The notes under the pieces are model-generated. The model was given only the letters and a program-made list of their open reading frames with translations. It made no database searches and was not told where the DNA came from. Made by a program: the position numbers and the translations under genes. From NCBI GenBank assembly GCA_038212075.1, contig JBBQUV010000005.1, positions 9,984-73,983 on the forward strand: a stretch of DNA of 64,000 nucleotides, read 5' to 3'. Below, piece after piece: positions 172 through 48,852 of this stretch. Every line of letters starts with the position of its first letter. The first letter of the stretch is position 1. The DNA comes from Minisyncoccia bacterium. GTDB taxonomy: Bacteria; Patescibacteriota; Minisyncoccia; Phycocordibacterales; Phycocordibacteraceae.

Positions 172-1365
172 TTGTTGAAAAATCGTCTCGTGAGGCGTAC
201 AGTTATTTTTGTAAATATGAATTATTCGCGTGTCATAGATGAAATCTTTCGCCAATTCGACGGGCCCAGATTTTCAATTAAATTATGGGATGGCTCAGAG
301 CGTTATTACGGGTCAGGTGAATCAATAGCGTTTACTCTTGTTATTGACGACGCAATAACCGCCCAACGCTTGCTGGCCCAGGGAGCACTCGGCTTTGGAG
401 AGGCTTATATGGAAGGGAGTCTGCGGATTGAAGGAGATCTTGAGGCATATCTTCGGCTTCGCCATCAATTCAAGCATGTGCGGCGTTCGTTGCGACTCAT
501 GTTCGCCACTTTTCTCGCTAGCAGAAACATACCTCGGGATAGGAAGGATCAAATCGCTTATCACTACGATCTTGGCAATGATTTTTTTCAAATGATTCTA
601 GATCAAAAAACGATGTCTTATTCTGCTGGACGTTATGAGACTGGTTCAGAAGATTTAGCGACAGCCCAGCAAAAAAAGCTTGAATTGATATGTCGCTGGC
701 TCAATCTTCCATCTGGCGCATCAGTTCTCGATCTTGGGTCTGGGTGGGGTGGATTTGCTCAGTATGCTGCAAGAAATATGCACTGGAATATTACTGGATA
801 CACGTTAAGTAACGCTCAACTGGAATATTGTCGACAGCTCATAGGAACAAACCAATTGAACTCGCTGGTGTCATTTGAATATCGTGACATGCTAGAAGAT
901 CTTCCAGCCAGCCAATTCGATGGGATTGCTATGATCGAATCTATAGAACACGTCGGTCAAAAAAGACTCCCTCTGTTTTTTGACCAGCTCAAACAGGTGC
1001 TTAAGCCGGGGGGATCGGCAGTCATTCAGTTTACGGGCCGATATAAACCACACCCTGTAGATCGGTGGACATTAAAGTACGTATTTCCAGGAGGATACTT
1101 GCCGACCAAGGAAGAACTTATTGCTGCTGCTACCCAATCCGGTTTTGTAGTTGAAGAATTTTGTGACGATACTCCTGATTACATCCGTACAATGACTGCA
1201 TGGATAAAAAACTTAGAAAGTCATCGTAACGATCTCGAACGTAAATTTAATAAGTCATTCTATCTACTTTGGGAGCTGTGGATGCACGGAGTGAGGGTTG
1301 CTTTCGAAATAAACTCTATGAGTTTATTTCGTCTTCACTTAAAACGCCCCAACAAGACCTTGTAG
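172..1365 (+). CDS. cyclopropane-fatty-acyl-phospholipid synthase family SAM-dependent methyltransferase (start may be the Met at 217)
   Basis: 397-aa ORF; class I SAM motif VLDLGSGWGGFAQYAARN; N-terminal WDGSERYYG region and overall length typical of CFA/mycolic-acid-synthase-like lipid methyltransferases. Confidence 0.7.
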   Translation: MLKNRLVRRTVIFVNMNYSRVIDEIFRQFDGPRFSIKLWDGSERYYGSGESIAFTLVIDDAITAQRLLAQGALGFGEAYMEGSLRIEGDLEAYLRLRHQFKHVRRSLRLMFATFLASRNIPRDRKDQIAYHYDLGNDFFQMILDQKTMSYSAGRYETGSEDLATAQQKKLELICRWLNLPSGASVLDLGSGWGGFAQYAARNMHWNITGYTLSNAQLEYCRQLIGTNQLNSLVSFEYRDMLEDLPASQFDGIAMIESIEHVGQKRLPLFFDQLKQVLKPGGSAVIQFTGRYKPHPVDRWTLKYVFPGGYLPTKEELIAAATQSGFVVEEFCDDTPDYIRTMTAWIKNLESHRNDLERKFNKSFYLLWELWMHGVRVAFEINSMSLFRLHLKRPNKTL

Positions 1366-1407
1366 GTAGGCAATTCGTGTGAGAAAATGGTATTTTAATT
1401 CAATACT

Positions 1408-1956
1408 ATGATCAACCCACAGCCAATACCTGCTTTGAATGAGACCACTGTTGCCCCAGTGCCGGTAGTAAAGAGTATTTGGGGCAAAGGTATACCCCGG
1501 ATCAACCGAATTTTCATGGTCATTTCACTTATACTCGTTTTGGGACTAGATCTCGCTATCCTTTTTGTCTCAGGTTTTTTGTTGCTTCCATTCTGGATCG
1601 TCATGCTTGTGGTGCTTGGAGTATTTGCAGTATTCTTTTATCTTGAAAATTATGTATTTAGCAAAAGATTCGCAAATACTAAGTCTGCATTAGATCCGTG
1701 GATATCTGCAATTATCGTCGCACGCAACGTCATTTTTGTGCTCAACTTCGTTCCTTTAATTCAAATACTCGGGCTCGCATTTCTTGCCGGGTTTTCTGCG
1801 GTCATCCCGAGCGCCTTATTTGGGAGCAACCTTTCTGGGCTTGGCGACTTAGGCGGTCTTGGAATAATGCCGATGATAGTACCTGGGCTATTTTTACTCT
1901 ACATCATTCTCATGGCTGCCCGATTTTCAGCGACAAAGAAAGTACCTGGTCAATAA
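1408..1956 (+). CDS. hypothetical polytopic membrane protein
   Basis: 182-aa ORF with several hydrophobic helices; no motif recognised. Confidence 0.4.
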   Translation: MINPQPIPALNETTVAPVPVVKSIWGKGIPRINRIFMVISLILVLGLDLAILFVSGFLLLPFWIVMLVVLGVFAVFFYLENYVFSKRFANTKSALDPWISAIIVARNVIFVLNFVPLIQILGLAFLAGFSAVIPSALFGSNLSGLGDLGGLGIMPMIVPGLFLLYIILMAARFSATKKVPGQ

Positions 1957-1960
1957 GTAT

Positions 1961-2647
1961 CTACGCCAGTTGAAGAATTTTCTCCATCAAGACAGAAGCC
2001 GCTTTTTCATAATCGTTTCGATCAACGTCAATTACTGCGTCCTCCGTATTTTGAAAGATATCTTTTGCGTAGAGCGGTGCGCCAAAAGTCACAATGACTT
2101 TTCTCTTACCACTGAGGAGATCTCTAAACGTGAGCTGTTCCAAATCCTGTATTAATAGGGGTACTATTGGGAGTTGCTTCTCCCTAGCAAGGAAACTTAC
2201 TCCACCTTTGGCTACAGGAGCCTCTCCTCGCAGGTTTCTTTTTCCTGATGGAAAAATACATACACTCTTTCCCTTATCAATAAACGTAAGGTGATGGTGA
2301 AGGGCACGTTTGTAGTTCTTTAATCCCACATATGCTTGGTATGCGCCCATCATTTTAAAAAAAATTCCACCGTAAATAATCCGTTTCCACCCGTTTTCAG
2401 CATAAAAGTTCTTTTCACGTGAAGTAAAAAACAGCGGAAGGTGGCGAGAAAAGAAAGGTAGGCATGCAACTATTAACAATGGGTCCAGTTCGCTCGTATG
2501 ATTGCTGGCGATAATCATATTACCTTTTATGTTTTTGACGTTCTCTAAACCCCTAATCTCAAGAGAACAAAAAATAGACATCGAGACCCGCAAGGGACCC
2601 CATATGAGGTGTTGGAACACACTGGGCATTATTTCGTATGTTTCCAT
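1961..2647 (-). CDS. lysophospholipid acyltransferase (PlsC/LPLAT family)
   Basis: 228-aa ORF; HX4D acyltransferase motif NHTSELD, downstream FP..G/R blocks typical of 1-acyl-sn-glycerol-3-phosphate acyltransferases. Confidence 0.6.
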   Translation of the reverse strand: METYEIMPSVFQHLIWGPLRVSMSIFCSLEIRGLENVKNIKGNMIIASNHTSELDPLLIVACLPFFSRHLPLFFTSREKNFYAENGWKRIIYGGIFFKMMGAYQAYVGLKNYKRALHHHLTFIDKGKSVCIFPSGKRNLRGEAPVAKGGVSFLAREKQLPIVPLLIQDLEQLTFRDLLSGKRKVIVTFGAPLYAKDIFQNTEDAVIDVDRNDYEKAASVLMEKILQLA

Positions 2648-2739
2648 TTAGCAGGGATACATTTACCTGTGCATAAGTACACTTTTCATCCACACTAGCA
2701 TAGTATTATATTCCACATAAGAGACCTCTTATTAATACT

Positions 2740-3396
2740 TTGAAAGTAACAACTATGAACTCCTCTGTAGTACTGTTTTTCATAAGTAACGTGCTGGCCA
2801 CGGTCTTGTTGGGTGGCAAATTTGTAAGCAGAAACGACCGCGTTTTTAAGTATTTTGGAATCGGTCTTCTGCTTGATGCTACCGCATTCGCAATGTGGAC
2901 GATCGGGTATATCAATCCAGGACAGCTTCTAACGTTCGTTACCTTTGGCGCGATGGCTTTTCTTGCTTCTCTGGTTGTTTTCCTATTTGCATCTCTTCAG
3001 CAAACTCCTGCAAGTACCCGCTTGTTAGTAACACTCCTTGGGGCCGCCGCCGTCATTGGAATATTTTACGTTGGAAACCAGTCTGCTAATTCGGCATTCA
3101 TATCGCCCGAAGGATTTCTGTTCTTTAATTTGACGCCACTCGTTCAAATGATTTATCTTTTCGGGCTGGCGTTTGCCTCACTTCCATTAATCGACATGAT
3201 CGCTTCAAGATTTAAAGCACCGTTTTCCGCACTTGTGCGATACGGTCTTATTACGGAGGTTGTGGGAGGCATCATGCTTATTACGAATAAGGACGCTCAA
3301 GTCCTGTACATTACCGGCTGGATTATAGGTATTGTGTATTTTGCTCTCTGGGCAACACTGCTTTTTAACCGCAAAGCTTGGTCGAGCGCAAACTGA
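2740..3396 (+). CDS. hypothetical polytopic membrane protein (first gene of co-directional operon 2740-10296)
   Basis: 218-aa ORF, about 6 predicted TM helices; no motif recognised. Confidence 0.45.
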   Translation: MKVTTMNSSVVLFFISNVLATVLLGGKFVSRNDRVFKYFGIGLLLDATAFAMWTIGYINPGQLLTFVTFGAMAFLASLVVFLFASLQQTPASTRLLVTLLGAAAVIGIFYVGNQSANSAFISPEGFLFFNLTPLVQMIYLFGLAFASLPLIDMIASRFKAPFSALVRYGLITEVVGGIMLITNKDAQVLYITGWIIGIVYFALWATLLFNRKAWSSAN

Positions 3397-3468
3397 ACGA
3401 ACGCTTATGGGTTCGTTTTTTGCTTGCCCCTTCTCTCGGGGTAGAGTACGGTTTACTGCTTTGCACCC

Positions 3469-4434
3469 ATGAAAGTATTAATTACAGGAATCACTGGAAA
3501 TTTAGGCCATGAAGTATCGCTTGACTTGCATCGGCGAGGCAGCACTCTAATACCTCTTGTACGCTCGGGAAATAGCAAAATTACATCTCACCCAGTACAT
3601 TTTGAAGAAGTGATCGAGGGTGATTTGGTGGAAGAAGGAGAAATTAAATTTTCCGGTGCGGTCGACTGCATTGTTCACTGCGCTGGGGTTGTTCGTTTTC
3701 GTGAGCCCAAAAATAAGAATGAACAGATGATGTTGCGGGTGATAGAGCTCGCAAAGGAGTTGGCAGTGCCTGTCTACGCCGTAAGCACCGCGTTTGTATA
3801 TAGACCACGAGGCACAACTAATGGATTCAATAATGACTATGAGCAAGACAAATTTCGAGCTGAACAAGCCCTTATTAGTTCTGGCGTATCGTATAGCATA
3901 TTTAGACCTTCGGTTTTAACCGGTAACAGTCACACCGGAGAAATACAGAACTTCAGCGGCTACTATCTAATGGTACGAGCGTTTTTATCCGCGGCACGTA
4001 ATGCGATTGAGCATGGGCGCCTGCTGAGATTTCCAAAAATGACTGGAGAATCAAACATGGTTCCTGTCGATCAGGCGGCAGAGTATATTGGCAAAACCAT
4101 ACAAGACGGCCCCCTCAAAGAGATATTCTATATTACTAATCCTGCACCACCTCGATCTGAATGGGTACTCGACGAGACGTTAAACTTTTTTGGCATTCGC
4201 AACGACGTTACCGTATTAGATGTGTCGTTTCAGGAATTTGGCGAACTCAATCTTACGGAAGAAGAGGCTGCGCTTTATCAATTTGCATCACATTTTAGCC
4301 CCTATTGGTCTACGGGATATGAATTTCCCGCTTCTCTTTGCAGCCATAATCTGATAAGTCATAGCTACTTAATGAAGGCACTAAACGTCTTTCGTAACAC
4401 AGAACAACTCGCTTATGGACAAAAAACTTATTAA
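3469..4434 (+). CDS. extended SDR family NAD(P)-dependent reductase/epimerase (thioester- or fatty-acyl-reductase-like)
   Basis: N-terminal Rossmann motif ITGITGNLG; catalytic YxxxK as YEQDK followed by FRAEQAL (resembles YxxSKxxAE of thioester-reductase domains); RPSVLTG block. Confidence 0.6.
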   Translation: MKVLITGITGNLGHEVSLDLHRRGSTLIPLVRSGNSKITSHPVHFEEVIEGDLVEEGEIKFSGAVDCIVHCAGVVRFREPKNKNEQMMLRVIELAKELAVPVYAVSTAFVYRPRGTTNGFNNDYEQDKFRAEQALISSGVSYSIFRPSVLTGNSHTGEIQNFSGYYLMVRAFLSAARNAIEHGRLLRFPKMTGESNMVPVDQAAEYIGKTIQDGPLKEIFYITNPAPPRSEWVLDETLNFFGIRNDVTVLDVSFQEFGELNLTEEEAALYQFASHFSPYWSTGYEFPASLCSHNLISHSYLMKALNVFRNTEQLAYGQKTY

Positions 4435-5497
4435 TTATAGCCAGTGTTGGGAAGATCCTCAGATCTTGGAAGAAGCGCTTTCGATTCACACAGGTGACTG
4501 CGTTCTATCCATAACATCGGGAGGAGATAACACGTTGGCTCTCTTGCTTGCCGGTCCGCAAAAAGTGGTCTCAATTGATCTGAATCCAGCCCAAAATTAT
4601 TTGCTTGAACTGAAGATGGCTGCGGCACAAAGCCTTACATACACAGAGTATCTGGAATTTTTAGGTGTTGTTGAATCAAACACCAGGGCTTCATACTTTG
4701 AAAAAGTACGTCCGCACCTGTCTTCTGCCACGAGTGTATGGTGGTCAAATCATACCCACTTAGTCGGCAAGGGTGTTATTCATTGTGGTCGCTTTGAGCG
4801 ATTCACCACGTGGTTTGCACAAAATATTTTACCACTCATACATTCCAGAAGCACGATTCTAAGTCTTCTATCTTTTAGCGATGTCGAGGATCAGCGGATT
4901 TTCTACCGAGATCAATGGAACTCTTGGCGATGGAGATTCCTTTTTGGTCTGGCATCCAACCGATTCATGTTGAGAAGGTTTGCTCGTCAACGAGGGATGT
5001 TTTCGTATTCAAAAGGAAAGACAGTCGCCGACTTGTATCGTAAAAGATTAGAGCGACACCTTACCGCTGTCTCTATTGAAAGCAACTTCTTCTTACATTA
5101 CAGCTTGACGGGAAAATATGGTCACGACCTACCTCCGTATCTGCAAGAAAAAGGATATTCGCAGTTGAAGCGAGTGTCAGCGTCAGCGCTCTCGATTGAG
5201 ACGAATGATCTCTTAACTTATTTAAGATCTAAACCCGCCAGCACCTTTTCCAAGTTTAATCTATCGGACATATTTGAAGCTCTTTCCCCAGTAGAAAATG
5301 ATATCTTATGGGAAGAAATTCTTCGCACAGCAAAGCATGGTGCTGTTGTGGCGTATTGGAACAATCTTGTTCAACGAACCTACCCACCTCATTTATCCGC
5401 TCATTTTCAGGTAGATGAGAAACGTGTGAGCCAGTTACGGTCAAAAGATAAGGTTTTTTTCTATGAAAGTTTTCATGTCCATACCATTCTAAAATGA
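4415..5497 (+). CDS. DUF3419/BtaA-like putative SAM-dependent transferase
   Basis: 360-aa ORF; N-terminal YSQCWEDPQILEEAL block, which I recall as the signature of DUF3419 (betaine-lipid synthase BtaA family); Rossmann-like VLSITSGGDNTLALL..VVSIDLNP; overlaps the upstream gene by 20 nt. Confidence 0.4.
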   Translation: MDKKLINYSQCWEDPQILEEALSIHTGDCVLSITSGGDNTLALLLAGPQKVVSIDLNPAQNYLLELKMAAAQSLTYTEYLEFLGVVESNTRASYFEKVRPHLSSATSVWWSNHTHLVGKGVIHCGRFERFTTWFAQNILPLIHSRSTILSLLSFSDVEDQRIFYRDQWNSWRWRFLFGLASNRFMLRRFARQRGMFSYSKGKTVADLYRKRLERHLTAVSIESNFFLHYSLTGKYGHDLPPYLQEKGYSQLKRVSASALSIETNDLLTYLRSKPASTFSKFNLSDIFEALSPVENDILWEEILRTAKHGAVVAYWNNLVQRTYPPHLSAHFQVDEKRVSQLRSKDKVFFYESFHVHTILK

Positions 5498-6390
5498 TCA
5501 CAAGAGCATATAAAACAGTTAAGAAATTCTACTCTTATCAACAAAAGCGATTCCCTTTGATCGTGCTGGCCCTGAGTCTCTCTCCAGCCATTTTAAGTTC
5601 AGGAGCCATTATATCTGTTCATCCGAGCATATTTCATATGGGTTCCGCACTTGTAGCTTCAATTGCATACCTGTTGCATATTAGAATTATAGATGAGCAT
5701 CGTGATTTTGATCACGATAACGTACACCATGCCACCCGCCCTGTTCAGGCGGGGACTATCTCCAAAGAGGAACTGCATCATATAGATATCTCGGCAGTTG
5801 CTCTTTTGGTTCTTATCGCAGCAAGTGCAGGATCACAAGCTTTTGCAACTGCGGTAGTCATGCTGTCGTACTCATATCTCGCTGGAAAGGAATTCTTCGT
5901 TGGTGAAAAGATCCGCAGATATTTTTTTAGTTATAACGCTGCAAATCTTATTCAAATGTTCTTGATGCAGATTTTTGTATATACGATTTTTGCAAATCCA
6001 TTCCCATTTAACACACTTATTCTCGCTCACTTTATTTTTACGAGTGTCGGTACGGTCATTTTTGAGTTTGTACGTAAGCTAAAAATACCAGGGGACGATG
6101 GTTCGGGTAGAGATACATACACTTGGTATCTTGGATTTTATAAAGCGATCGCTATCTATCAAGTGCTCCTCGTATCAGATACGTTACTTTTCATATGGAT
6201 TGCAACACTTCTTTTGCCACATACTGCTGTTCTACTCTCTTTTGCGTTAGGATTAGCGATGTTGGCTTCTTTGTCCACTCTGATCCATACAAGGAAGAAG
6301 ACACATCAGACAGATCAACTTATGCAGCTGTCTTTTTTGCTCTTATACGGAATCTTCAATCTCGCAATTTATTTCCTTAAAATCATATAA
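5494..6390 (+). CDS. UbiA-family integral membrane prenyltransferase
   Basis: 298-aa polytopic protein; Asp-rich motif DEHRDFDHD followed by NVHHATRPVQAGTIS (compare UbiA NDxxDxxxD...RTANRPLPSG); ATGA overlap with the upstream gene. Confidence 0.55.
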   Translation: MITRAYKTVKKFYSYQQKRFPLIVLALSLSPAILSSGAIISVHPSIFHMGSALVASIAYLLHIRIIDEHRDFDHDNVHHATRPVQAGTISKEELHHIDISAVALLVLIAASAGSQAFATAVVMLSYSYLAGKEFFVGEKIRRYFFSYNAANLIQMFLMQIFVYTIFANPFPFNTLILAHFIFTSVGTVIFEFVRKLKIPGDDGSGRDTYTWYLGFYKAIAIYQVLLVSDTLLFIWIATLLLPHTAVLLSFALGLAMLASLSTLIHTRKKTHQTDQLMQLSFLLLYGIFNLAIYFLKII

Positions 6391-8667
6391 ATGCTTAAAA
6401 GTGGCAAGGCACATTCGCTAAGACGACTTAAAGACGGTGGCTGTCTCGTGCCTCCATTTTTTGTGTGTGATGCAACGTGGTCAGAGGGAGAGATATTGAA
6501 AAAGATAGATACCAGCCTACCAGGTGTTGAGTATTTCGCTGTTCGCTCTTCAGCAGCGAATGAGGATTCAAGTGATCGATCTTTTGCGGGGCATTTTTAC
6601 ACTGCAATAGGAGTAGGTCGTCGAGATATCATTGCAGAAGTAGGTAAGGTGCAAAAGTCCTACGAAGAAATGTCAGGTTCGGTAATCGTGCAGGAGTTCA
6701 TATCCAGCGATACGGCTGGCGTCATGTTTACTGAAGTGGGCAAAGACACTGTAGTCATAAATTCAACAACCGGTCTTTGTCGACCAGTCGTTGAGGGTGG
6801 TGCGTGCGATGAATATTTGTTGAGCAAAGATGGTACTTTGGTACGAAAAACGATTCCTACAGAAAAAGGAGTACTTCTGTTTAAAGATCAGAAGATTATT
6901 TCCGAAAAGAGTAGTGAAGAATCTCTCAATGAGTCGAAGATAAGCCAATTGATAAAGGTAGGTGCTAAGATTCAGGATCTTTTTGACTCGCCTCAAGATA
7001 TTGAGTGGTGTTTCAAAGATGGCGAATTATATATTCTTCAGTCTCGCCCCATTACGAGGGATTTTAAAGTTGGAAAGGAAGAATATTTTGATAGTGCCAA
7101 TATAGCAGAAAGTTATTCAGGTATTGTTCTTCCTCTTACTTGTTCATTCGCCAAGACGGTATACGAACAGGTCTACAAGGACCTCCTTCACATGTCTGGG
7201 GTCTCAAGAAAAAAGATAGAGCGTCATTCCGAAGTCTTTGAAGGCTTACTCGGTTTTTTCTATGGAAGGATGTACTACAACATGAACAATTGGTATCGCA
7301 TGGCGGAGTTCGTACCCGGGTATAGTAGGAACAAACAGAACTTCGAGTTAATGATTACGAGCAACATCAAACAAGATGTTGCAACGGTAATAAGACCCTC
7401 TTTTGGTCTACGAGCTCTGTACCCCGTAATTGTTGGCCTAAAGGTAGCTGCGTTCGGAGTTACTTCATCGAGTTTTAAATCGGGAGTAGAGTGCCACTTA
7501 CGTCTCCTTAGAAATCAGGACTTCAAACGTCTAAACTATAAAGACTCAATCACTTTATTTGAAAATATAAATAAGAATCTATTGCGCCGATGGTACATCA
7601 CGCTTGAGAACGATTTTTTTGTGATGACGTATTTAGGAATTCTGAGAAAGCTACTTAACGAAGATCTATTGCAAAAAGCCATTACGTTTCCAAGTAAAGC
7701 AACTGAACAGGTTGATGCGCTGTCGGCTCTTAGTAAGCAAATGAGTGACGTTAGGGAAGTATGGCAGGCTGTCGAATCTGACGATGTTAAAAGATTTAAG
7801 GTGGAACTGGAACGTAATGCAAAACTATCTGTCGCTCTTGATACCTATCTACACACATTCGGTGGAAGATTTGCAAGCGAGTTAAAGCTTGAATCAATCG
7901 GCGTGGATGAAGATCCAAAAAAACTGTTTGTAGTTTTAAAGGCCTATCGGAATTACAAGCCTAAATCAGGCATCGTTCAACCAGATTTATCCTTACCTTT
8001 TTTCAAGAAGCTTATCGTAAAGATAATAGTGGGTAAATTCAGGAAATACGCCTCTCGCCGTGAGGACTTTCGTTTGTTGCGTTCTAACACGTTTGCTATG
8101 GCCAGACATCTCTTCAGACATATGGGTACCTTGCTGGTAAGGGGGGGTAGCATACAAAACCAGGGCGATGTGTTTTATTTAACAATGCAAGAAATACTCG
8201 ATCCACGAGCCCATACGCATAGCCATCTCACAGAGGTCGTGGCAAAGAGAAAAGAAGAATACGTCTCCTATAAAGATACCGTTCCACCATCTCATTTTTC
8301 GACGATTAATGGTCAGCTACCCCCAGTCGTAGCTTCAGCCATGTCCAAGCAACATACAATTCATGCTCGCCCAGCATCTCCCGGAACGGTGAGAGGTCGA
8401 GTAAAGGTATTTAGAGAGTTTTCAATGCCAAATCAAGTAGACTTTGATATCTTAGTGACATCACACACTGATCCGGGGTGGACGTCACTTATCGCGTTAT
8501 CTAAAGGGCTTATTATTGAGCATGGCGGGGTGTTGTCGCATGCTTCAATTGTGGCCCGAGAGTTGGGCATACCAGCCGTAATTGGTGCCACAAATATTCT
8601 CAATACACTAGTAGACTACCAAACAGTAGAAATGGACGGATCGACTGGAGTAATTAATTTATCGTAG
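6391..8667 (+). CDS. PEP-utilising-enzyme family protein (PEP synthase / rifampin-phosphotransferase-like ATP-dependent phosphotransferase)
   Basis: 758 aa; PPDK_N/ATP-grasp block FAVRSSAANEDSSDRSFAGHFYT; C-terminal swivelling phospho-His domain GGVLSHASIVARELGIPAVIG; no PEP/pyruvate-binding TIM-barrel segment evident. Confidence 0.7.
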   Translation: MLKSGKAHSLRRLKDGGCLVPPFFVCDATWSEGEILKKIDTSLPGVEYFAVRSSAANEDSSDRSFAGHFYTAIGVGRRDIIAEVGKVQKSYEEMSGSVIVQEFISSDTAGVMFTEVGKDTVVINSTTGLCRPVVEGGACDEYLLSKDGTLVRKTIPTEKGVLLFKDQKIISEKSSEESLNESKISQLIKVGAKIQDLFDSPQDIEWCFKDGELYILQSRPITRDFKVGKEEYFDSANIAESYSGIVLPLTCSFAKTVYEQVYKDLLHMSGVSRKKIERHSEVFEGLLGFFYGRMYYNMNNWYRMAEFVPGYSRNKQNFELMITSNIKQDVATVIRPSFGLRALYPVIVGLKVAAFGVTSSSFKSGVECHLRLLRNQDFKRLNYKDSITLFENINKNLLRRWYITLENDFFVMTYLGILRKLLNEDLLQKAITFPSKATEQVDALSALSKQMSDVREVWQAVESDDVKRFKVELERNAKLSVALDTYLHTFGGRFASELKLESIGVDEDPKKLFVVLKAYRNYKPKSGIVQPDLSLPFFKKLIVKIIVGKFRKYASRREDFRLLRSNTFAMARHLFRHMGTLLVRGGSIQNQGDVFYLTMQEILDPRAHTHSHLTEVVAKRKEEYVSYKDTVPPSHFSTINGQLPPVVASAMSKQHTIHARPASPGTVRGRVKVFREFSMPNQVDFDILVTSHTDPGWTSLIALSKGLIIEHGGVLSHASIVARELGIPAVIGATNILNTLVDYQTVEMDGSTGVINLS

Positions 8668-8670
8668 GCC

Positions 8671-9675
8671 ATGAATATCAAACCATATCAAAATAACTCT
8701 TTCGCCAACGAGCTCAGCGATCTCCTGCGGAAGAAATATGGAAACAACAAAAACTTCGACTATTTTTTAAGTGACTTCAGGAAGGCGTTTAGCTTTTGTA
8801 TTGATAATGAGAATGTAAATTTTCAACCAATTGCTGGGTTTGAAGCAGAACAATTGCGTGCACATATCGCTCTCATTGTTGATAAAAGATTACCAACAGG
8901 TGAGGCATTTTTTGGCTTCCTAGAAGCTCCTGAAGACGCCTCGATATTCAGTCTAATGTGGAACAGTCTAGTGCAAGAAGCTCGTGACAAAGGAATTTCG
9001 ATTCTCAAGGGTCCTGTAAACGGGAGCATCTGGCATCAATATAGGTGTGTCAAAGAAACAGACGGCTCTAACTTTTTTAAAGCAGAATTATTTTGCGAGC
9101 CTTACTACTATGATTTTCTTGTCTCAAACAAACCAACCACCGAAGTGCTCTACTACTCAGCTTCTCGGGAACATTTCGATATCGTGTTGCGAATGATCAG
9201 TGAAGCTTCGTACAAGAAACTTGGTGCTTCCGGCTTTTCTATCAAGGCGACGAAACAGGTCACCCCTGAAGAGATGCAAACGGTAGCGAACATCTCCAAA
9301 ACAGTCTTTCATAGTAGTTGGGGATATACCGAACTGAATGAGCGAGAGTTTATGCAGCTCTATTCGCCGGACAAATTAAGTTCACATCTTAATACGCTGT
9401 ACTTGCTCTATAAGGGGAGAGAAATCATAGGTTTTTGTAGTACTTCCAAGGAAGATGATACAACTCTCATTCTAAAAACAATCTGCATTTTGTCACCATA
9501 TCAAGGTTTAGGTTTAGGAAATGCTCTGGCATATAAAATACATCTCGACGCCAAGGAAGACGGTTTTGAAAAGATGGTCTACGCTCTGATACGAGAAGGT
9601 AATAACATAAAGAATTTCCCCAAAGAGGAGGCTGTGATTTTTCGACGCTATGCAGCCTTCGAATTTCACATATAA
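8671..9675 (+). CDS. hypothetical protein with C-terminal GNAT-like acyltransferase fold (possibly tandem GNAT)
   Basis: 334 aa; GNAT motif-A-like YQGLGLGNALAYKI near the C-terminus; no other motif recognised. Confidence 0.4.
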   Translation: MNIKPYQNNSFANELSDLLRKKYGNNKNFDYFLSDFRKAFSFCIDNENVNFQPIAGFEAEQLRAHIALIVDKRLPTGEAFFGFLEAPEDASIFSLMWNSLVQEARDKGISILKGPVNGSIWHQYRCVKETDGSNFFKAELFCEPYYYDFLVSNKPTTEVLYYSASREHFDIVLRMISEASYKKLGASGFSIKATKQVTPEEMQTVANISKTVFHSSWGYTELNEREFMQLYSPDKLSSHLNTLYLLYKGREIIGFCSTSKEDDTTLILKTICILSPYQGLGLGNALAYKIHLDAKEDGFEKMVYALIREGNNIKNFPKEEAVIFRRYAAFEFHI

Positions 9676-9678
9676 AAT

Positions 9679-10296
9679 ATGTATATCTCTCTTTTTCTCC
9701 TCGTGTCTGTGGCCTTTATTGCGAGTGTAGAACTTGTAAAAAGGAGGGCTCAGATTTCAAGTGATTTTACCAGAAGAGTGACCCATATAGGTGCAGCGTT
9801 TATTGCGGCGGCGGCCCCACTGTTTATAAACCAGCAAGCAATTATTATCGCGTGTCTATTTTTTGCTGGCACATTACTGCTCGCACGTCGGAGCGATATG
9901 TTTTCGTCGATACATGACGTTAAGCGCACCACCTTTGGAGACGTTTATTTACCCTTGGGGGAGGCTATTTCTGCTGCTATCTTTCTTCCTCATGCAGTCT
10001 TAGCTTTCCAATTCGGAGTGCTTGTGATGGGTATATCTGACGCCTTGGCAGGTCTCGTTGGCGAAAAATTCGGCAGACATAAGGTTACTTTTTTCGATAA
10101 TACAAAGAGCCTTGAGGGAGCCACGGTTTTTTTTGTCAGTACCCTAATCTTGGCGCTTCTGTTCGTTCCGGTTTTTAGTTACCAAATATTGTTTATCGCC
10201 GTCATACTGACGCTGGTGGAGTTCTTACTGATATATGGCTTAGATAACTTAGTATTGCCGATTATCGGATCGATTCTCATTCAAACGGTACTGTAG
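9679..10296 (+). CDS. CTP-transferase-family (CdsA superfamily) membrane protein, polyprenol (dolichol/phytol) kinase-like; a CDP-alcohol-synthase (CarS-like) role is not excluded
   Basis: 205-aa polytopic protein; block ISDALAGLVGEKFGRHKV...KSLEGATVFFVS resembles the dolichol-kinase/phytol-kinase C-terminal signature (GDxxAxxxGxxxGxHK...K[ST]xEGS); lacks the PGHGGxxDRxD of true CdsA. Confidence 0.5.
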   Translation: MYISLFLLVSVAFIASVELVKRRAQISSDFTRRVTHIGAAFIAAAAPLFINQQAIIIACLFFAGTLLLARRSDMFSSIHDVKRTTFGDVYLPLGEAISAAIFLPHAVLAFQFGVLVMGISDALAGLVGEKFGRHKVTFFDNTKSLEGATVFFVSTLILALLFVPVFSYQILFIAVILTLVEFLLIYGLDNLVLPIIGSILIQTVL

Positions 10297-10409: not shown

Positions 10410-10886
10410 ATGATATCTAAAAACACAATCTGTATTTGGTTTGATAAAGATGCGGAAACTGCGGCGAATTTTTACGCCGCTACTTTTCCGGATAGCAACG
10501 TAGTTAGTGTTTTCCGTGCGCCAAGTGATTTCCCTGGTGGTAAGCAGGGCGACGTACTAACGGTAGAGTTTATTGTTTGTGGAATTCCCTGTATCGGTTT
10601 AAATGGCGGTCCTATATTTAAGCAAAGTGAAGCTTTTTCCTTTCAGATTGCAACGGACAATCAGGAAGAAACAGATCGCTACTGGAATGCGATTGTTGAG
10701 AATGGTGGTCAAGAGAGCGAATGTGGATGGTGCAAGGATCGCTGGGGAGTATCGTGGCAGATTACGCCACGCACCCTTACCGAGGCGCTTGCCGCCGGTG
10801 GCGCAGAAGCAAAACGAGCGTTTGACGCGATGATGACTATGAAAAAAATCGATGTAGCCGCTATTGACGCCGCACGACGGATTTGA
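10410..10886 (+). CDS. VOC/PhnB-like protein (Pfam '3-demethylubiquinone-9 3-methyltransferase' domain family)
   Basis: 158 aa; WGVSWQI block and size typical of that glyoxalase-fold family. Confidence 0.55.
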   Translation: MISKNTICIWFDKDAETAANFYAATFPDSNVVSVFRAPSDFPGGKQGDVLTVEFIVCGIPCIGLNGGPIFKQSEAFSFQIATDNQEETDRYWNAIVENGGQESECGWCKDRWGVSWQITPRTLTEALAAGGAEAKRAFDAMMTMKKIDVAAIDAARRI

Positions 10887-11834: not shown

Positions 11835-13799
11835 GTGGAAGCCCCTATTCCAGAAGCGACACCTCCCATTCCGCCAGTGCCTGGCGCCCACCCGGAAATA
11901 AGCATAACTCTATTTGCTGGCATCATTATTCTGGAAATCTTGCTCGTTTGCGTATTTGCCTCGTGGAAATTTGGATTTCTGACGGAAAAAAATACTGTAG
12001 TAAATAATGGTGAAGAAACAAGCACCGTAACAGAAGACACTGGAACATCGCAAGGGAACTACAATTCTTCTGATCGATTTTTGACTCCACAACAGTTTCA
12101 AGTTGCGCGATTAAGTCTTGGCAGTACCACCCCCAAAGTACTCAAAGACAAGTATGATCTGTTCGTGCTCAGCCAACCGTACGAAGATATTGATACTAAC
12201 GGCGTTACCACCTATTACGAAGATGGGACTTTGTCGTCGGGAACATATGCGGGATACCATGTGATTATTGCTCGTATTACACCCTATGACAACGATGGAC
12301 CTGGCAGTAGCGACGAGTACTACACCTTCATCACCAAGGATTACCGCTCATTTATTGTATTTACCCCAGAGATAGGAAAACTACCGAATCCGACATGGTT
12401 TAATACTGCGCGCGTTGTCCAAGCGGATCATTTCGCAACTCATTTTCCAAACACTATTCCGTTTGGGAATTTTGTTCTTACAAAAAGTGAATGGTTTAAC
12501 TCAGATGTTTTGTATGATCACAACAATACTTCTCCTGTAGGAACGGTTGAACTCACGAGTCCCGATCCACACCTGAAAATTTTCTCTGAGCCAGAAGAAC
12601 CTCTTACTAACCTTGAAGATACTCTTACAAAGACGCTTGCCGATGCTGCAGCCGCGTACATTTATGGGCGGACCACCGTTATGGTGCGCGATGAAGCAGG
12701 GATTGGATTTGTTTACTCGCTTTCCTTTGCGCACTTTGCAAATCCAAATGATCCAGCAGGTCGTATTCCAAACACCGAGTACCGCTACGGATATTTGGGA
12801 GTAGCTCAAAACCAGCCGACGCTCTATTCTTCCTATGCAAAATTAATTCCTTACGGTTGCGAAGGCGCAAACTCCTCTGAGAGTTACGTTCTTAAGAATA
12901 TCTCTGATGCTGATGTCCGCGACACGGGTATTAAGTGGCAGGGTGTTGAGTTGTATGCCTTTGCGAACGCACGTAATCCACTCACCGAGGCCCATTATCG
13001 TCAAAAGGTTGCAGCATACGCCGCGATATATAAGAACGGAAGCGAGTCCGCCACTCTGGATACACTTGCGTTTACTGACTATATAGCAAAAACCCCAACG
13101 CTTCTTTTTAAAGATCCGTGGGGCAGATGGGTGGGTGTTGGAGAAGATGAATACAAGGTAACTGGAGGTTGCGGGAAACCGGTGATTTACCTGTATCCTC
13201 CTCAATCGACTGAGGTATCAGTGCAATTTATGCAATCACCGAGGTTCACTACTGATATACCAATCTATGAAAATGGTTGGAAGGTACTCGCGGAAACGAC
13301 GGGAGCACTTCACGACTTGCAGCCAGCCCTGACTCCTTGCGAGACATTGGCTACCAACGTATTTGGCTCCGAATATGCGGGAGCAGCCTGCAAAACAAAC
13401 ACCTACCCATATCTCTTCTGGGCAGGACAAGCAAATGGAAACTACCCAACGCCGACTGGAGGATGGATTGTGGAGAAGGCAAACATAGAATCGTTTCTAG
13501 GATCAAAATTGACTGAGCTTGGCTTAAATGACACAGAACGCAATGACATGCTCTCATTCTGGGTGCCGCAACTCATGAAAAAGAATAGTCCGTACTATCG
13601 GTTGGCTTTCTTTCAAACGAGCGAAATGAACCATTTCATACCTATGATTATTTCACCGCGTCCCGATAGCATGCTCCGACTCTTCCTTGATTGGACACCG
13701 CTTTCTACTCTTCCGGATCATCTCCCACAGCCACAACAGTTACATCAATTCCACCGGTCTGGATTTGCGGTAGTCGAGTGGGGAGGTCTTGATCGTTAA
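11835..13799 (+). CDS. hypothetical large exported / membrane-anchored protein
   Basis: 654 aa; Pro-rich N-terminus then one TM/signal-anchor (ISITLFAGIIILEILLVCVFASW); large hydrophilic Y/W/N/T-rich ectodomain; no motif recognised. Confidence 0.55.
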   Translation: MEAPIPEATPPIPPVPGAHPEISITLFAGIIILEILLVCVFASWKFGFLTEKNTVVNNGEETSTVTEDTGTSQGNYNSSDRFLTPQQFQVARLSLGSTTPKVLKDKYDLFVLSQPYEDIDTNGVTTYYEDGTLSSGTYAGYHVIIARITPYDNDGPGSSDEYYTFITKDYRSFIVFTPEIGKLPNPTWFNTARVVQADHFATHFPNTIPFGNFVLTKSEWFNSDVLYDHNNTSPVGTVELTSPDPHLKIFSEPEEPLTNLEDTLTKTLADAAAAYIYGRTTVMVRDEAGIGFVYSLSFAHFANPNDPAGRIPNTEYRYGYLGVAQNQPTLYSSYAKLIPYGCEGANSSESYVLKNISDADVRDTGIKWQGVELYAFANARNPLTEAHYRQKVAAYAAIYKNGSESATLDTLAFTDYIAKTPTLLFKDPWGRWVGVGEDEYKVTGGCGKPVIYLYPPQSTEVSVQFMQSPRFTTDIPIYENGWKVLAETTGALHDLQPALTPCETLATNVFGSEYAGAACKTNTYPYLFWAGQANGNYPTPTGGWIVEKANIESFLGSKLTELGLNDTERNDMLSFWVPQLMKKNSPYYRLAFFQTSEMNHFIPMIISPRPDSMLRLFLDWTPLSTLPDHLPQPQQLHQFHRSGFAVVEWGGLDR

Positions 13800-14104: not shown

Positions 14105-15355
14105 ATGGAAGACAGTACTCCCAAGCGCTATAACGTTATTGTCGTTGGTGGGGGAGCGTCCGGCATGATGGCCGCCGCTATAGCGAGTGCGCGCGGCAAG
14201 CGCGTGCTTCTTCTTGAAAAGAATTCAAGACTTGGCGAGAAGCTTGCCATATCCGGCGGCGGCCGTTGTAACATACTGAACGCTGAAGAAGACGAGAAAA
14301 AACTTCTTGCACAGTATGGAAAATCAGAACAATTTCTCTACTCAACGTTTGCGAAGTTTGGAATGAAGGACGCGTATACATTTTTTGAAACAAACGGCTT
14401 GCCGCTCATCGTAGAAGGTCGCAAACGCGCATTTCCCAAAACTGAAAAAGCAAAGGACGTGGTACGGACGCTAGAGCGTGCTCTTACCAAGGGAAATGTT
14501 GCTATCCGCCTGAAGTCTCCTGTGACAAAAGTACATCACGAACACGGACGCATTACTTCTGTTGAAGCGGGCGGAACTGCATACTCTGCTGACTCCTACA
14601 TCTTTGCGACTGGAGGATTTTCTCGCCCCGAGACCGGTTCAACAGGTGACGGCTTTTCTTGGCTTACGAGTCTTGGGCACACGTTTCATCCGCCAACCCC
14701 AACCATTGTCCCGCTGAAATCAAAAGAATCGTGGGCGAAAGAGCTCTCCGGTACTTCCGCGCCAGACGCAAAGATTACGTTTTCAGTGGAAGGTAAACGT
14801 GCTTTTTCTGCGATTGGTTCAATTCTTTTTACCCATACCGGAATATCAGGGCCCACGATTCTAAATTCTTCTGGAAAGGTGGCGGATCTTCTGCAAGAAG
14901 GGGAAGTAACGGCAACCATAGACCTTTTTCATAAAACCGACGTAGGTACTCTTGATAAGGTACTTTCTGATGTATTCGATCAGAACAAAAATAAATCGTT
15001 AAGAAATGCGTTCAGAACCTTCGTTCCACCAGGAATGAGTACGGTGTTGCTTTCACTGCTTCCTGATATTGATGTGGAAACAAAAGTACACAGTGTGACT
15101 AAAGAAAATCGACGACGACTGGTAGTTCTTGTGAAATCGTTACCGCTTAGTATCACGGGGCTCATGGGGTTCAATAAAGCGGTTGTCGCAGATGGAGGTG
15201 TACCGCTTACGGAAATAGATATGCGAACCATGCGTTCGAAGAAAGTAGAAAACCTTTTTATCATCGGCGACTTACTCCACATTGCAAGACCGTCAGGTGG
15301 CTACTCACTGCAGTTGTGCTGGACGACTGGACACGTTGCTGGTACAGCCATATAG
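14105..15355 (+). CDS. HI0933-family FAD-dependent flavoprotein (BaiN / aminoacetone-oxidase family)
   Basis: 416 aa; N-terminal FAD dinucleotide fold VIVVGGGASGMMAAAIASARGKRVLLLEKNSRLGEKLAISGGGRCNILN, which is the family signature. Confidence 0.8.
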   Translation: MEDSTPKRYNVIVVGGGASGMMAAAIASARGKRVLLLEKNSRLGEKLAISGGGRCNILNAEEDEKKLLAQYGKSEQFLYSTFAKFGMKDAYTFFETNGLPLIVEGRKRAFPKTEKAKDVVRTLERALTKGNVAIRLKSPVTKVHHEHGRITSVEAGGTAYSADSYIFATGGFSRPETGSTGDGFSWLTSLGHTFHPPTPTIVPLKSKESWAKELSGTSAPDAKITFSVEGKRAFSAIGSILFTHTGISGPTILNSSGKVADLLQEGEVTATIDLFHKTDVGTLDKVLSDVFDQNKNKSLRNAFRTFVPPGMSTVLLSLLPDIDVETKVHSVTKENRRRLVVLVKSLPLSITGLMGFNKAVVADGGVPLTEIDMRTMRSKKVENLFIIGDLLHIARPSGGYSLQLCWTTGHVAGTAI

Positions 15356-20011: not shown

Positions 20012-20111
20012 CGGATAGGTGCCTTTTGGCTTCGGTTGCGGCGCAAATCGCTTCATAAAAGCACTATACATTCCTTTTCCTATTCCGCATAAATAAGGTA
20101 GGGTGGCTACA

Positions 20112-21578
20112 ATGAGCCGCGACGAAGCTATAGTGCGCTTTGATGAGGTGACGTTTGAATACGCGCACGGTAAAACTGTTCTCGATGAGGTGAGTTTTTC
20201 AATACGCCGCGGAGCAAAAATGACGCTGATGGGACAGAACGGCGCGGGGAAGTCCACCATCTTCAAACTGATTACTGGTGCGGTTGCTCCGGAAGACGGA
20301 AAACTGCAAATTGTCCCACGACTCACCATCGCACTGTCGCACCAAGTCATGGTGCCTGAAGATTTAGCGCTCACCGTGCGGGAATTTTTTGAAAAGCGTT
20401 TTTCGCAGAAGGTGTACGACATTGATCCAAAAATTGACGCCGTGCTTGATGTGGTGAACTTGCATGCACCCCACGACCGCATTATTAAGTCGTTTTCAGG
20501 CGGCCAGCAGGCGCGCCTTCTTCTTGCTTCGGCACTTATTCAAGACCCCGACCTTCTTCTTTTGGATGAGCCAACCAACAACCTGGATCATGCTGGTATT
20601 GAGCACCTTACGGCTTTTTTGAAAACCTACGACAAAACGGTGGTGGTTATTTCTCACGATGCTGAGTTTTTGAACGCGTTCACTGAAGGCGTGCTGTATC
20701 TCGATGTGCATTCGCACAAAATTGAACAGTACGTTGGAAACTACTTTGATCTTCTAAAAGAAATCACGCTTCGTATCGAACGCGAAAACCGAAAGAACGC
20801 ACAGCTTGCGAAGAAAATTCAAGACAACAAGGACAAGGCAAACTTTTTCGCCCAGAAGGGAGGCAAGATGCGTTTAGTTGCAAAAAAGATGCGTACGGAA
20901 ATTGAAGAAATGGAAGAAGAAAAAGTGGATGTGAGAAAGGAAGATAAAACGATTCGGCCGTTTGTTATTCCTTCTCAACCAGAGCTTACAGGGGAACTAC
21001 TTCGTATTACCTCGTTTACGACGATGCACCCTAAAAAGCATGTACCGGTCCCACATACCGCAACCGTGGCGCTCAAGAAAAAACAACACCTCCAGCTGAA
21101 GGGTCCAAATGGTATTGGAAAAACAACACTGCTTGAAACAATTGCTGAAGGAAAGGCAGAAGGCACGTATATCGCACCGCAGGTACGTGTGGGCTACTAC
21201 CGCCAAGATTTTTCTACACTTAATTTTGAACACACGGTGTATGAATCGCTTGCGAGCGTTATGCAAAAACCGGATGAACAGCGACTGCGTTCGGTTGCGG
21301 CAGGTTTTTTGCTTGGTTCTGAAGTTATAGACAAAAAAATTCGCTTACTTTCGGAAGGGCAGAAGGGGCTTGTGGCATTTGCGCGTCTCGTGCTTCTTGC
21401 TCCCGGACTTTTGATTTTGGACGAACCAACCAATCACATTAATTTTCGTCATCTTCCCGTGATTGCAAAAGCGCTTGATGCCTATGAAGGCGCGATGGTG
21501 CTCGTGTCGCACGTTCCCGAGTTTGTGGCGCAAATACGTGTTGACGATGTGCTTGATTTGGAACAGAACAAAAAATGA
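20112..21578 (+). CDS. ABC-F family ATPase (two ABC domains, no TMD)
   Basis: Walker A GQNGAGKST and GPNGIGKTT; signatures LSGGQQ and LSEGQKG; about 490 aa; ATG 20112 preferred over GTG 20103. Confidence 0.85.
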   Translation: MSRDEAIVRFDEVTFEYAHGKTVLDEVSFSIRRGAKMTLMGQNGAGKSTIFKLITGAVAPEDGKLQIVPRLTIALSHQVMVPEDLALTVREFFEKRFSQKVYDIDPKIDAVLDVVNLHAPHDRIIKSFSGGQQARLLLASALIQDPDLLLLDEPTNNLDHAGIEHLTAFLKTYDKTVVVISHDAEFLNAFTEGVLYLDVHSHKIEQYVGNYFDLLKEITLRIERENRKNAQLAKKIQDNKDKANFFAQKGGKMRLVAKKMRTEIEEMEEEKVDVRKEDKTIRPFVIPSQPELTGELLRITSFTTMHPKKHVPVPHTATVALKKKQHLQLKGPNGIGKTTLLETIAEGKAEGTYIAPQVRVGYYRQDFSTLNFEHTVYESLASVMQKPDEQRLRSVAAGFLLGSEVIDKKIRLLSEGQKGLVAFARLVLLAPGLLILDEPTNHINFRHLPVIAKALDAYEGAMVLVSHVPEFVAQIRVDDVLDLEQNKK

Positions 21579-36439: not shown

Positions 36440-36445
36440 TTGCGT

Positions 36446-45956: not shown

Positions 45957-45990
45957 GAAAAACCCGCTTTACAGCGGGTTTTTCATTTTT
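45957..45990. terminator. bidirectional rho-independent terminator shared by the RNR gene (+) and rnpB (-)
   Basis: AAAAACCCGCTTTACAGCGGGTTTTTCATTTTTT: A-tract 5' and T-tract 3' of a 9-bp stem. Confidence 0.75.
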
Positions 45991-46342: not shown

Positions 46343-46346
46343 GGAT

Positions 46347-46375
46347 AATATACCACAAAAACACTATCTACACAA
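46347..46375 (-). promoter_or_regulatory. rnpB promoter TTGTGT-N17-TATATT (minus strand), -10 ends about 7 nt before the P1 5' end
   Basis: plus-strand ACACAA 46370-46375 and AATATA 46347-46352. Confidence 0.45.
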
Positions 46376-46449
46376 TTCTCTTTCCTGCTTGCAAACAGAG
46401 GGGGTATACTTTGTAGGCATTACCAGCAGGGCGCATTTATTTTTTTAGT

Positions 46450-48843: not shown

Positions 48844-48852
48844 TCACTACGT

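Follow-up and report, generated by a model that had tools for sequence, protein, structure and literature searches.

Positions 172 to 10296 of a 64,000-nt stretch of contig JBBQUV010000005.1 (Minisyncoccia bacterium, GCA_038212075.1; the whole stretch is hereafter called the window) carry a conserved cluster of ten genes, which we tentatively read, from the protein families represented, as an undescribed pathway by which a membrane lipid is made or remodelled. Known enzyme families are combined here in a new way that has no characterized counterpart. It contains a five-protein core that travels across phyla, consisting of a DUF3419 (BtaA-family) protein, a UbiA-like protein, a phosphotransferase resembling rifampin phosphotransferase (RPH-like; PPDK in the gene layouts), a tandem GNAT protein, and a 205-aa membrane protein (TM205) or a relative of it. 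Optional additions to this core are a thioester-reductase-type short-chain dehydrogenase/reductase (SDR), a radical S-adenosylmethionine (radical-SAM) enzyme, an AMP-ligase, or an MMPL exporter. In Patescibacteria, or Candidate Phyla Radiation (CPR) bacteria, the wider core has a specific addition made up of Cfa, PlsC, and two membrane proteins, TM182 and TM218. Literature searches aimed at the cluster or its components returned no published description of it; the lipocone paper describes other UbiA-linked operons, and not this cluster (PMC12419801).

For three of the cluster proteins, the closest homologues are overwhelmingly from CPR bacteria, including Taylorbacteria, Paceibacterota, Kaiserbacteria, Staskawiczbacteria, Daviesbacteria, and Levyibacteriota. 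These relatives, together with DUF5667 and further housekeeping genes of the window, place the stretch in the CPR. Approximately 40 loci were gathered by looking up gene contexts and by scanning a single genome for each species (labels L004 to L045 denote the homologous or comparison loci retrieved), and layouts were compared by tblastn of the ten window proteins against these loci. The CPR-type layout, running Cfa, TM182, PlsC (reverse strand), TM218, SDR, DUF3419, UbiA, PPDK, GNAT, and TM205, encodes proteins with 41 to 77% amino acid identity to those of the window. The series TM218-DUF3419-UbiA-PPDK-GNAT-TM205 is kept in 18 distinct CPR-type loci, 14 of which also contain Cfa and PlsC. The same gene order recurs in approximately 20 CPR genomes with differing flanking genes, and catalytic motifs are conserved in every enzyme of the cluster. 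The full ten-gene CPR layout is also observed, at 43 to 52% identity, in metagenome-assembled genomes (MAGs) labelled Gammaproteobacteria, Bdellovibrionales, or Saccharibacteria (L012, L019, L023, L024, L015, and L021), a finding explained either by wrong labels or contamination of the bins or by recent transfer.

Outside the CPR, we observe the core in Bacteroidota, Dehalococcoidia, Myxococcota, Alphaproteobacteria, and Bacillota. The Bacteroidota loci (Tenuifilaceae, Rikenellaceae, Bacteroidales, and Crocinitomicaceae; L026, L028-L030, and L034) display the order DUF3419-UbiA-PPDK-GNAT-TM205, with an SDR gene nearby in L034. Those of Dehalococcoidia (L031-L033) comprise a BTAD regulator, UbiA-like, split PPDK, GNAT, SDR, SPASM radical-SAM, DUF3419, and TM205-like genes. 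In Myxococcota and proteobacteria (L036-L038), the order is UbiA-PPDK-DUF3419, after which comes the gene for an MMPL/RND transporter that has a sterol-sensing domain. Two further versions come from cultured bacteria. Brevibacillus laterosporus B9 (L041; NZ_CP011076.1, approximately 463.3 to 472.3 kb, the complement of L041 6860-18248) encodes HMG-CoA reductase-UbiA-PPDK-DUF3419-TM205-like (439 aa)-GNAT-AMP-ligase-P450, where the end of the lone HMG-CoA reductase gene overlaps the start of the UbiA gene. Roseinatronobacter sp. S2 (L042; plasmid NZ_CP121116.1, approximately 128.2 to 136.2 kb) encodes UbiA-PPDK-DUF3419-TM205-like-GNAT-like-AMP-ligase. The Brevibacillus B9 record is nearly unannotated at the cluster, and an ETX/MTX2 toxin gene lies just downstream.

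The genes of the core have themselves been remodelled. PPDK is split by gene fission in L031 and L039, and TM205-like fusions are encoded in three non-CPR loci (L035:7649-8965, L041:13071-14390, and L042:4932-6251). The N-terminal half of the 439-aa proteins is homologous to TM205 (probability, 99.7%), and their fused C-terminal membrane domain (approximately 210 aa) has no detectable family. That linkage is retained through fission, fusion, and rearrangement is a strong argument for one function. The lipid-operon reading first made from the sequence alone has thus held up on two counts: family searches did not assign the genes to unrelated non-lipid functions, and gene order is conserved, in approximately 20 CPR genomes and, for the core, in at least five phyla.

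An accessory radical-SAM gene, not in the window (L004:11973-13124, the same as in L013; L026:8731-9873; L029:8470-9612), is inserted between UbiA and PPDK in four CPR-type loci, and a member of the same family lies upstream of DUF3419 in the Bacteroidales loci L026 and L029. The best solved relative of this CPR/Bacteroidales family is GDGT-MAS/Tes (7tol; 3.6e-13), the next match being at 3e-6. GDGT-MAS/Tes is the archaeal tetraether/macrocyclic archaeol synthase, which joins lipid tails. The radical-SAM protein of Dehalococcoidia is not Tes-like and appears as a generic SPASM enzyme, which limits the Tes link to the CPR/Bacteroidales family. In L035, a B12-radical-SAM gene follows UbiA. Among 428 Patescibacteria MAGs, 3 have been reported to contain Mss homologues (PMC11868695). 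Hints of isoprenoid metabolism are given by the HMG-CoA reductase of Brevibacillus and by IspG, located 5 kb upstream in L026 and L029.

Three members of the core, TM205, the RPH-like enzyme, and the UbiA-like protein, are always linked and, by analogy, resemble an activation-and-transfer arm. Compared with solved structures, the family profile of the UbiA-like protein ranks M. jannaschii digeranylgeranylglyceryl phosphate synthase (DGGGPS) first (6m31; 3.5e-7, 33 bits) and Rv3806c second (8j8j; 4.7e-4). The first Asp-rich motif, I-D67-E-H-R-D71-F-D-H-D75...R82-P-V-Q-A-G87, fits (N/D)DxxDxxxD...RPxxxG, and D67, D71, D75, R82, and G87 are invariant among 13 sequences of 6 phyla. A second acidic motif, E191..R194-K195..D..G.D207-T-Y209, is also conserved and differs in form from the canonical DxxxD. 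Crude hydropathy indicates approximately 7 hydrophobic segments, the superfamily expectation being 8 to 9 transmembrane helices, and the syntenic orthologue of Brevibacillus matches PF01040 at 56.8 bits. Judged by these motifs and profiles, the product is a UbiA-superfamily intramembrane prenyltransferase-like protein.

The RPH-like protein matches PF01326 (PPDK_N; 4e-31) at residues 47-226 and PF00391 (PEP-utilizers; 7e-22) at residues 686-753, and neither a phosphoenolpyruvate (PEP)/pyruvate TIM barrel nor any further Pfam domain was found in it. This gives a three-part architecture of N-terminal ATP-grasp, central substrate domain, and C-terminal swivel-His domain, with approximately 100 N-terminal residues of the ATP-grasp model missing. 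Its match to the NCBIfam model PRK06241.2-2 reaches 445 bits, and RIF_Ptrans_rph, PigC, and RedH also match, at 195, 168, and 164 bits against cut-offs of 999, 1300, and 1350, so that the equivalog level is not reached. The best match in the PDB is Listeria 5fbs/5hv1 (2e-49), deposited as "phosphoenolpyruvate synthase," which we take to be rifampin phosphotransferase. The catalytic-His motif GG.LSHA.IVARELGIP is conserved among the homologues.

TM205 itself has no match in Pfam or NCBIfam, even at E<=10. Among its homologues, 17 of 40 match CTP_transf_1 (PF01148; best E, 4.9e-6), and several carry the JGI label "phytol kinase." In Foldseek, the TM205 model (predicted local distance difference test [pLDDT], 89) has a single meaningful match, CdsA, and residues 120-147 of TM205 align to E. 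coli CdsA 164-192. The two have in common the motif D-x2-A-x3-G-x2-F-G-x-H-K...K-[ST]-x-[EQ]-G, which is conserved in 25 to 40 homologues. The CdsA C-terminal signature K-D...P-G-H-G-G-x2-D-R-x-D is absent from TM205, which has E181...G187-x-D189-N190...P194 instead; this E..GxDN..P motif is presumably nearer to polyprenol, dolichol (DolK), or phytol (VTE5) kinases than to a cytidylyltransferase. Placement of TM205 in the CTP-transferase-1 superfamily, as a CdsA/polyprenol-kinase-like protein, rests on homologues, fold, and one motif and is weaker than the sequence-only reading had stated.

The BtaA-like protein and the tandem GNAT would, we infer, form a head-group arm. DUF3419 is recognized by PF11899 at 2.4e-74 (251 bits against a cut-off of 28) and has 833 homologues at E<=1e-10. 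Its identity to proteins of btaA-btaB-type operons is 22 to 25% in alignment and 24 to 27% by tblastn. Y.Q.WED, SGG.N.L, D55, and D285 are common to both, and the window protein has NLSDIFE where the btaA-btaB-type proteins carry ILLDxQDW, so that by its sequence it represents a subfamily apart from the btaAB-linked BtaA. To our knowledge, the sole chemistry of the DUF3419/BtaA family is SAM-dependent aminocarboxypropyl transfer to a lipid hydroxyl.

The GNAT product matches PF00583 at 1e-7 (residues 221-311), and its AF2 model (pLDDT, 85) is a tandem GNAT in which the acyl-CoA loop Q-x2-G-x-G is conserved, which identifies it, at the level of a predicted structure, as a tandem-GNAT N-acyl(acetyl)transferase. 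In Foldseek, its best match is the glucosamine N-acetyltransferase of C. acetobutylicum (5kf2; 5e-13, TM-score 0.66), and the clavulanate tandem GNAT 2wpw and MAB_4324 are also among the top matches. FemX and aaPGS match more weakly (TM-score, approximately 0.4). An acetyl-CoA-dependent enzyme is therefore ranked above a FemX/MprF-like, aminoacyl-tRNA-dependent one.

The SDR is, by its profile, a stand-alone extended reductase of the thioester-reductase (R-domain/fatty acyl reductase) type. It matches NAD_binding_4 (PF07993) at 6e-15 and TIGR01746 at 1.4e-10, with TGxTGxxG and Y124-x3-K128 conserved. The best solved relatives of its profile, aligned near full length, are the R domains of MxaA (4u7w; 1.4e-17), a nonribosomal peptide synthetase (NRPS; 6vtj), and a polyketide synthase (PKS; 8v1x), and NDP-sugar epimerases are matched by its N-terminal half as well. 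In the window cluster, Pfam detected neither PP-binding nor AMP-binding proteins, AMP-ligases being present in some non-CPR versions only.

The remaining genes constitute the CPR addition. Cfa, syntenic in 14 CPR loci, is on sequence grounds a Cfa-family SAM-dependent lipid methylene/methyl transferase, with matches to CMAS (PF02353; 1.1e-61) and to an N-terminal DUF7884 domain (PF25371; 7e-14), and with 231 bits to NCBIfam PRK11705, under the equivalog cut-off of 400. PlsC matches PF01553 at 6e-17 and TIGR00530 at 48.7 bits, below the cut-off, and its catalytic motif N-H50-T-S-E-L-D55 (HX4D) and FPSG are kept across 18 homologues. Searches of Pfam and NCBIfam gave no match for TM182, a protein with approximately 4 hydrophobic segments that is a short member of its family (197 to 595 aa in other CPR loci, where the gene either precedes TM218 or stands between Cfa and PlsC). 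TM218, with approximately 6 transmembrane segments, opens the CPR version of the cluster and is present in every complete CPR locus and not outside CPR-type loci. It has no Pfam match, even a profile of 33 sequences retrieved no relative from the PDB, and HMMER, run exhaustively, places it in only 51 representative clusters among 1.84 billion proteins; across these searches, neither TM218 nor TM182 has a relative of known function. We also considered whether TM218 corresponds to the region by which the 439-aa TM205-like proteins are extended at the C terminus, and rejected this, the two being unrelated and showing no similarity.

Taken together, these families outline a possible route. TM205 would consume CTP in phosphorylating (or CDP-activating) an alcohol, either lipid or prenyl, and the RPH-like enzyme may carry out a second, ATP-driven phosphoryl transfer to give a diphosphate or, alternatively, activate a carboxylate. 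The UbiA-like protein, nearest to DGGGPS, would spend the diphosphate to attach a prenyl or alkyl chain to a lipid acceptor through an ether bond. The BtaA-like enzyme would then transfer the 3-amino-3-carboxypropyl group of SAM to a free lipid hydroxyl, and the tandem GNAT would N-acetylate the resulting amine. Where present, the SDR may reduce an activated carboxyl group, yielding an aldehyde or alcohol; the presence of an AMP-ligase, and possibly of the Brevibacillus HMG-CoA reductase, in places comparable to that of the SDR suggests that such reduction of an activated carboxyl is optional. In the CPR only, PlsC would re-acylate (lyso)lipids and Cfa would modify unsaturated acyl chains, roles by which the island would tailor lipids that these bacteria probably scavenge. 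We favor a membrane lipid over a soluble product because 4 of the 10 cluster products are polytopic membrane proteins by hydropathy count, and because MMPL exporters, a GDGT-MAS-like radical-SAM enzyme, and PlsC and Cfa are joined to the core.

Several observations weigh against a membrane-lipid pathway of this kind. The family call for the UbiA-like protein is borne out by its motifs and by DGGGPS as nearest solved relative, but PF01040 scores 30.9 bits, under the Pfam cut-off of 34.2. For TM205, described from the sequence as CTP-transferase/polyprenol-kinase/CarS-like, homologues, fold, and motif speak for the superfamily, while it has no Pfam match of its own and no CarS match; the CdsA fold match (Foldseek E, 0.056; TM-score, 0.40) is a weak superfamily link, and hhalign assigns it a probability of 4% over a 28-residue motif. 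The known targets of RPH-type enzymes are hydroxyl or carbonyl oxygens, and none of these enzymes is known to act on phosphomonoesters, which leaves the proposed second kinase without precedent. In L035, an AMP-ligase occupies the place of the RPH-like gene, and this swap favors carboxylate activation by the RPH-like enzyme. The SDR gene is absent from 6 CPR loci and is therefore not essential, and the HMG-CoA reductase of Brevibacillus could be a thioester-reductase surrogate rather than a source of isoprenoids. In addition, two near-invariant peptide patterns retrieve the module at 35 loci among 185,579 species representatives; given this rarity, it is not a general solution to CPR membrane building and represents an accessory trait of some CPR lineages. 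Finally, the BTAD regulator, P450, plasmid location, and patchy distribution resemble specialized metabolism.

A bolder form of the membrane-lipid reading, which we consider quite unlikely, is that the product is a non-canonical lipid class mixing archaeal-type and betaine-lipid-type chemistry in Patescibacteria and scattered Bacteroidota, Chloroflexota, Bacillota, and Proteobacteria. Here, a salvaged or self-made prenyl/alkyl chain would be phosphorylated and ether-linked by the DGGGPS-like enzyme, the SAM-derived aminocarboxypropyl head group would be N-acetylated and optionally reduced, and loci with the Tes-like radical-SAM enzyme would join tails into membrane-spanning forms.

Among rival explanations, the one that survives best, though we hold it to be unlikely, is a specialized, non-structural metabolite cluster whose product would be a prenylated, N-acetylated, amino-acid-derived small molecule (a meroterpenoid-like signal, antibiotic, or host-interaction factor), the membrane enzymes merely handling the prenyl donor. 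This would account for the BTAD/SARP-type regulator heading the Dehalococcoidia cluster, for the P450, AMP-ligase, and HMG-CoA reductase of the Brevibacillus cluster, and for the plasmid-borne copy of Roseinatronobacter. PigC and RedH, relatives of the RPH-like enzyme, are natural-product enzymes, and a tandem GNAT of the clavulanate pathway is among the top structural matches of the GNAT protein. Patchy taxonomy and a GC content of 0.425 in the cluster (172-10296), against 0.484 in the remaining window (10297-64000), suggest horizontal transfer and fit the same explanation; the low GC could reflect horizontal acquisition or membrane-protein composition. However, in the CPR the module is firmly joined to PlsC, Cfa, and a further two or three membrane proteins, the accessory radical-SAM enzyme is Tes/GDGT-MAS-like, and exporters of the lipid-type MMPL family follow the module in two lineages. 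Moreover, streamlined CPR genomes spend approximately 10 kb on the cluster and keep it at 41 to 77% identity across classes, and no NRPS, PKS, terpene cyclase, or precursor peptide is encoded nearby.

A second explanation, which appears very doubtful to us, is a polyprenyl-phosphate-linked (amino)sugar or similar envelope precursor, comparable to decaprenyl-phospho-ribose/arabinose or undecaprenyl-phospho-Ara4N. TM205 would make the polyprenyl phosphate, the UbiA-like protein would move a phosphosugar from a diphosphate donor in the manner of Rv3806c, and later the SDR would reduce or epimerize the sugar and the GNAT protein would N-acetylate an amino sugar. The second rank of Rv3806c among solved relatives of the UbiA-like profile, glucosamine N-acetyltransferase as best structural match of the GNAT protein, the epimerase matches of the SDR N-terminal half, and the resemblance of TM205 to polyprenol kinase are all compatible with such steps, and MurJ, encoded elsewhere in the window, shows a polyprenyl-phosphate carrier in use. 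Against this, the full-length matches of the SDR are thioester-reductase domains and not epimerases, DUF3419, Cfa, PlsC, and the Tes-like radical-SAM enzyme would be without a role, and no glycosyltransferase (GT-C or other), aminotransferase, or sugar-nucleotide enzyme is present among the annotated module genes and their neighbors. That unrelated lipid and housekeeping genes are merely packed together is hardly credible: CPR genomes are gene dense with commonly short intergenic distances, Shine-Dalgarno motifs are lacking, and a hairpin separates TM218 from the remaining genes, but the explanation is refuted by synteny, given the order kept in approximately 20 CPR genomes with differing flanks and a core kept in other phyla despite rearrangement, fission, and fusion.

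All ten open reading frames (ORFs) listed from the sequence are present at their given coordinates (Table 1), and Pfam/NCBIfam hidden Markov model searches upheld the Cfa, PlsC, thioester-reductase SDR, DUF3419, PPDK, and GNAT family calls. The initially proposed gene arrangement needs correction. Positions 2740-10296 contain seven co-directional genes, the number that the sequence-only reading itself names, and not the eight it counted, and of the five junction overlaps it claimed, two are real: SDR/DUF3419 (20 nt) and DUF3419/UbiA (4 nt, ATGA). UbiA and PPDK abut, and 3-nt gaps occur at PPDK/GNAT and at GNAT/TM205. A single coupled transcript for all these genes is likewise retained only in part, with coupling plausible for 3469-10296 and disfavored upstream by a hairpin directly 3' of the TM218 stop, in the 72-nt spacer ahead of SDR. 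This hairpin and spacer would delimit a tightly coupled unit of six genes, 3469-10296. The same spacer in L004, L024/L027, L011, and L014 contains strong hairpins of unrelated, non-homologous sequence, and the recurrent structure may act as a partial terminator or attenuator balancing expression of the membrane protein against that of the enzymes. No Shine-Dalgarno-like motif precedes any cluster gene start. For Cfa (conserved from M16) and TM218, homologue conservation suggests later starts (Table 1).

Table 1. Genes and terminator-like element of the cluster, in window coordinates
Feature	Position	Strand	Basis and remarks
Cfa	172-1365	+	ORF list; likely start ATG 217
TM182	1408-1956	+	ORF list
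PlsC	1961-2647	-	ORF list; divergent orientation
TM218	2740-3396	+	ORF list; likely start ATG 2755
Stem-loop with T-run, terminator-like	3395-3418	+	In the 72-nt TM218-SDR spacer
SDR	3469-4434	+	ORF list; 321 aa
DUF3419	4415-5497	+	ORF list
UbiA-like	5494-6390	+	ORF list
PPDK (RPH/PigC-type phosphotransferase)	6391-8667	+	ORF list
GNAT	8671-9675	+	ORF list
TM205	9679-10296	+	ORF list; 205 aa

The remaining window holds ordinary chromosomal content, including BipA, LepA, MurJ, RNR, an aminoacyl-tRNA synthetase, DUF5667, RNase P RNA, and four tRNAs. Directly after the cluster, 10410-10886 encodes a PF06983 protein ("3-demethylubiquinone-9 3-methyltransferase"/glyoxalase-fold; 1.4e-48) that is outside the conserved synteny elsewhere. 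An HI0933-like flavoprotein and a double ABC ATPase are encoded a few kilobases downstream of the cluster (14105-15355 and 20103-21578), and the same pair lies directly upstream of Cfa in a distant CPR contig (that of P0053); this pairing may represent a looser conserved neighborhood. Strong negative AT skew (-0.27, -0.16) is observed at 46001-50000, over the genes for a 797-aa tetratricopeptide repeat membrane protein and MurJ, with RNase P RNA (45986-46342, minus strand) just upstream of this region. Pfam gave no match at E<=1e-4 for the 654-aa ORF at 11835-13799 and none at E<=1e-5 for the 639-aa ORF at 36440-38359.

According to published reports, CPR bacteria synthesize neither fatty acids nor phospholipids and reuse the lipids of their hosts (PMC7242380, PMC12455944). 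The locus offers a concrete, conserved set of candidate membrane-tailoring enzymes in one subset of these bacteria. Since the core is present in the cultured B. laterosporus B9 and Roseinatronobacter sp. S2, its product can be identified without cultivation of a CPR organism. If the cluster were solved, a subfamily of DUF3419 proteins, one of RPH-like kinases, and an orphan family of membrane proteins would gain functions, and a new lipid class useful as an environmental biomarker could emerge.

When compared with known systems, the cluster fits none of the canonical btaAB, olsBA, hopanoid, menaquinone, or GGGPS-DGGGPS-CarS pathways, as the sequence-only reading had concluded, and these are rejected because partner genes are missing. 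The closest parallel for the head-group arm is BtaA/BtaB, the route to the betaine lipid diacylglyceryltrimethylhomoserine (DGTS), with which it has the DUF3419/BtaA-family protein and its shared motifs in common. Canonical operons (L044 and L045) encode the small methyltransferase BtaB directly downstream, whereas neither the window nor any of the syntenic loci has a neighboring BtaB N-methyltransferase gene. The amine partner here is the tandem GNAT, which implies N-acetylation and not trimethylation. Several motifs are subfamily-specific, and the missing BtaB, with the low identity, rules out the btaAB pathway.

Similarities to the archaeal ether-lipid route comprise the DGGGPS-closest UbiA profile, the CdsA/CarS-type superfamily placement of TM205, and the GDGT-MAS-closest radical-SAM enzyme in sister loci, all of them remote (33 bits; TM-score, 0.40). 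The proposed reminiscence of DGGGPS plus CarS gains some support from DGGGPS as nearest solved UbiA relative and CdsA as sole meaningful fold match, and none as regards a CarS-like protein. Neither geranylgeranylglyceryl phosphate synthase (GGGPS) nor glycerol-1-phosphate (G1P) dehydrogenase has a match in the ten cluster ORFs (E<=0.01) or among the called genes of sister loci; with no CarS match either, the GGGPS-DGGGPS-CarS pathway is ruled out. The archaeal route, in turn, is without the BtaA-like, GNAT, RPH-like, and R-domain enzymes seen here.

In plant and cyanobacterial phytol salvage, VTE2, a UbiA-family transferase, is supplied by VTE6 and by VTE5, a CTP-dependent kinase that shares its membrane-kinase family with dolichol kinase. 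The cluster is analogous in combining a small kinase-like membrane protein, a second phosphotransferase, and a UbiA-family transferase. However, the second enzyme appears here as an RPH/PigC-type His-swivel protein and not VTE6/COG1836, and there is no pathway for an aromatic acceptor. The SDR has the NAD_binding_4 fold, TGxxGxxG, and YxxxK of NRPS/PKS R domains (MxaA and AusA) and of fatty acyl-CoA reductases, and differs from the R domains in standing alone, with no carrier protein or adenylation domain in the CPR cluster. Finally, the RPH-like enzyme shares its three-part architecture and catalytic His motif with RPH and PigC/RedH, but it is set in a lipid-related gene context instead of one of antibiotic resistance or prodiginine synthesis.

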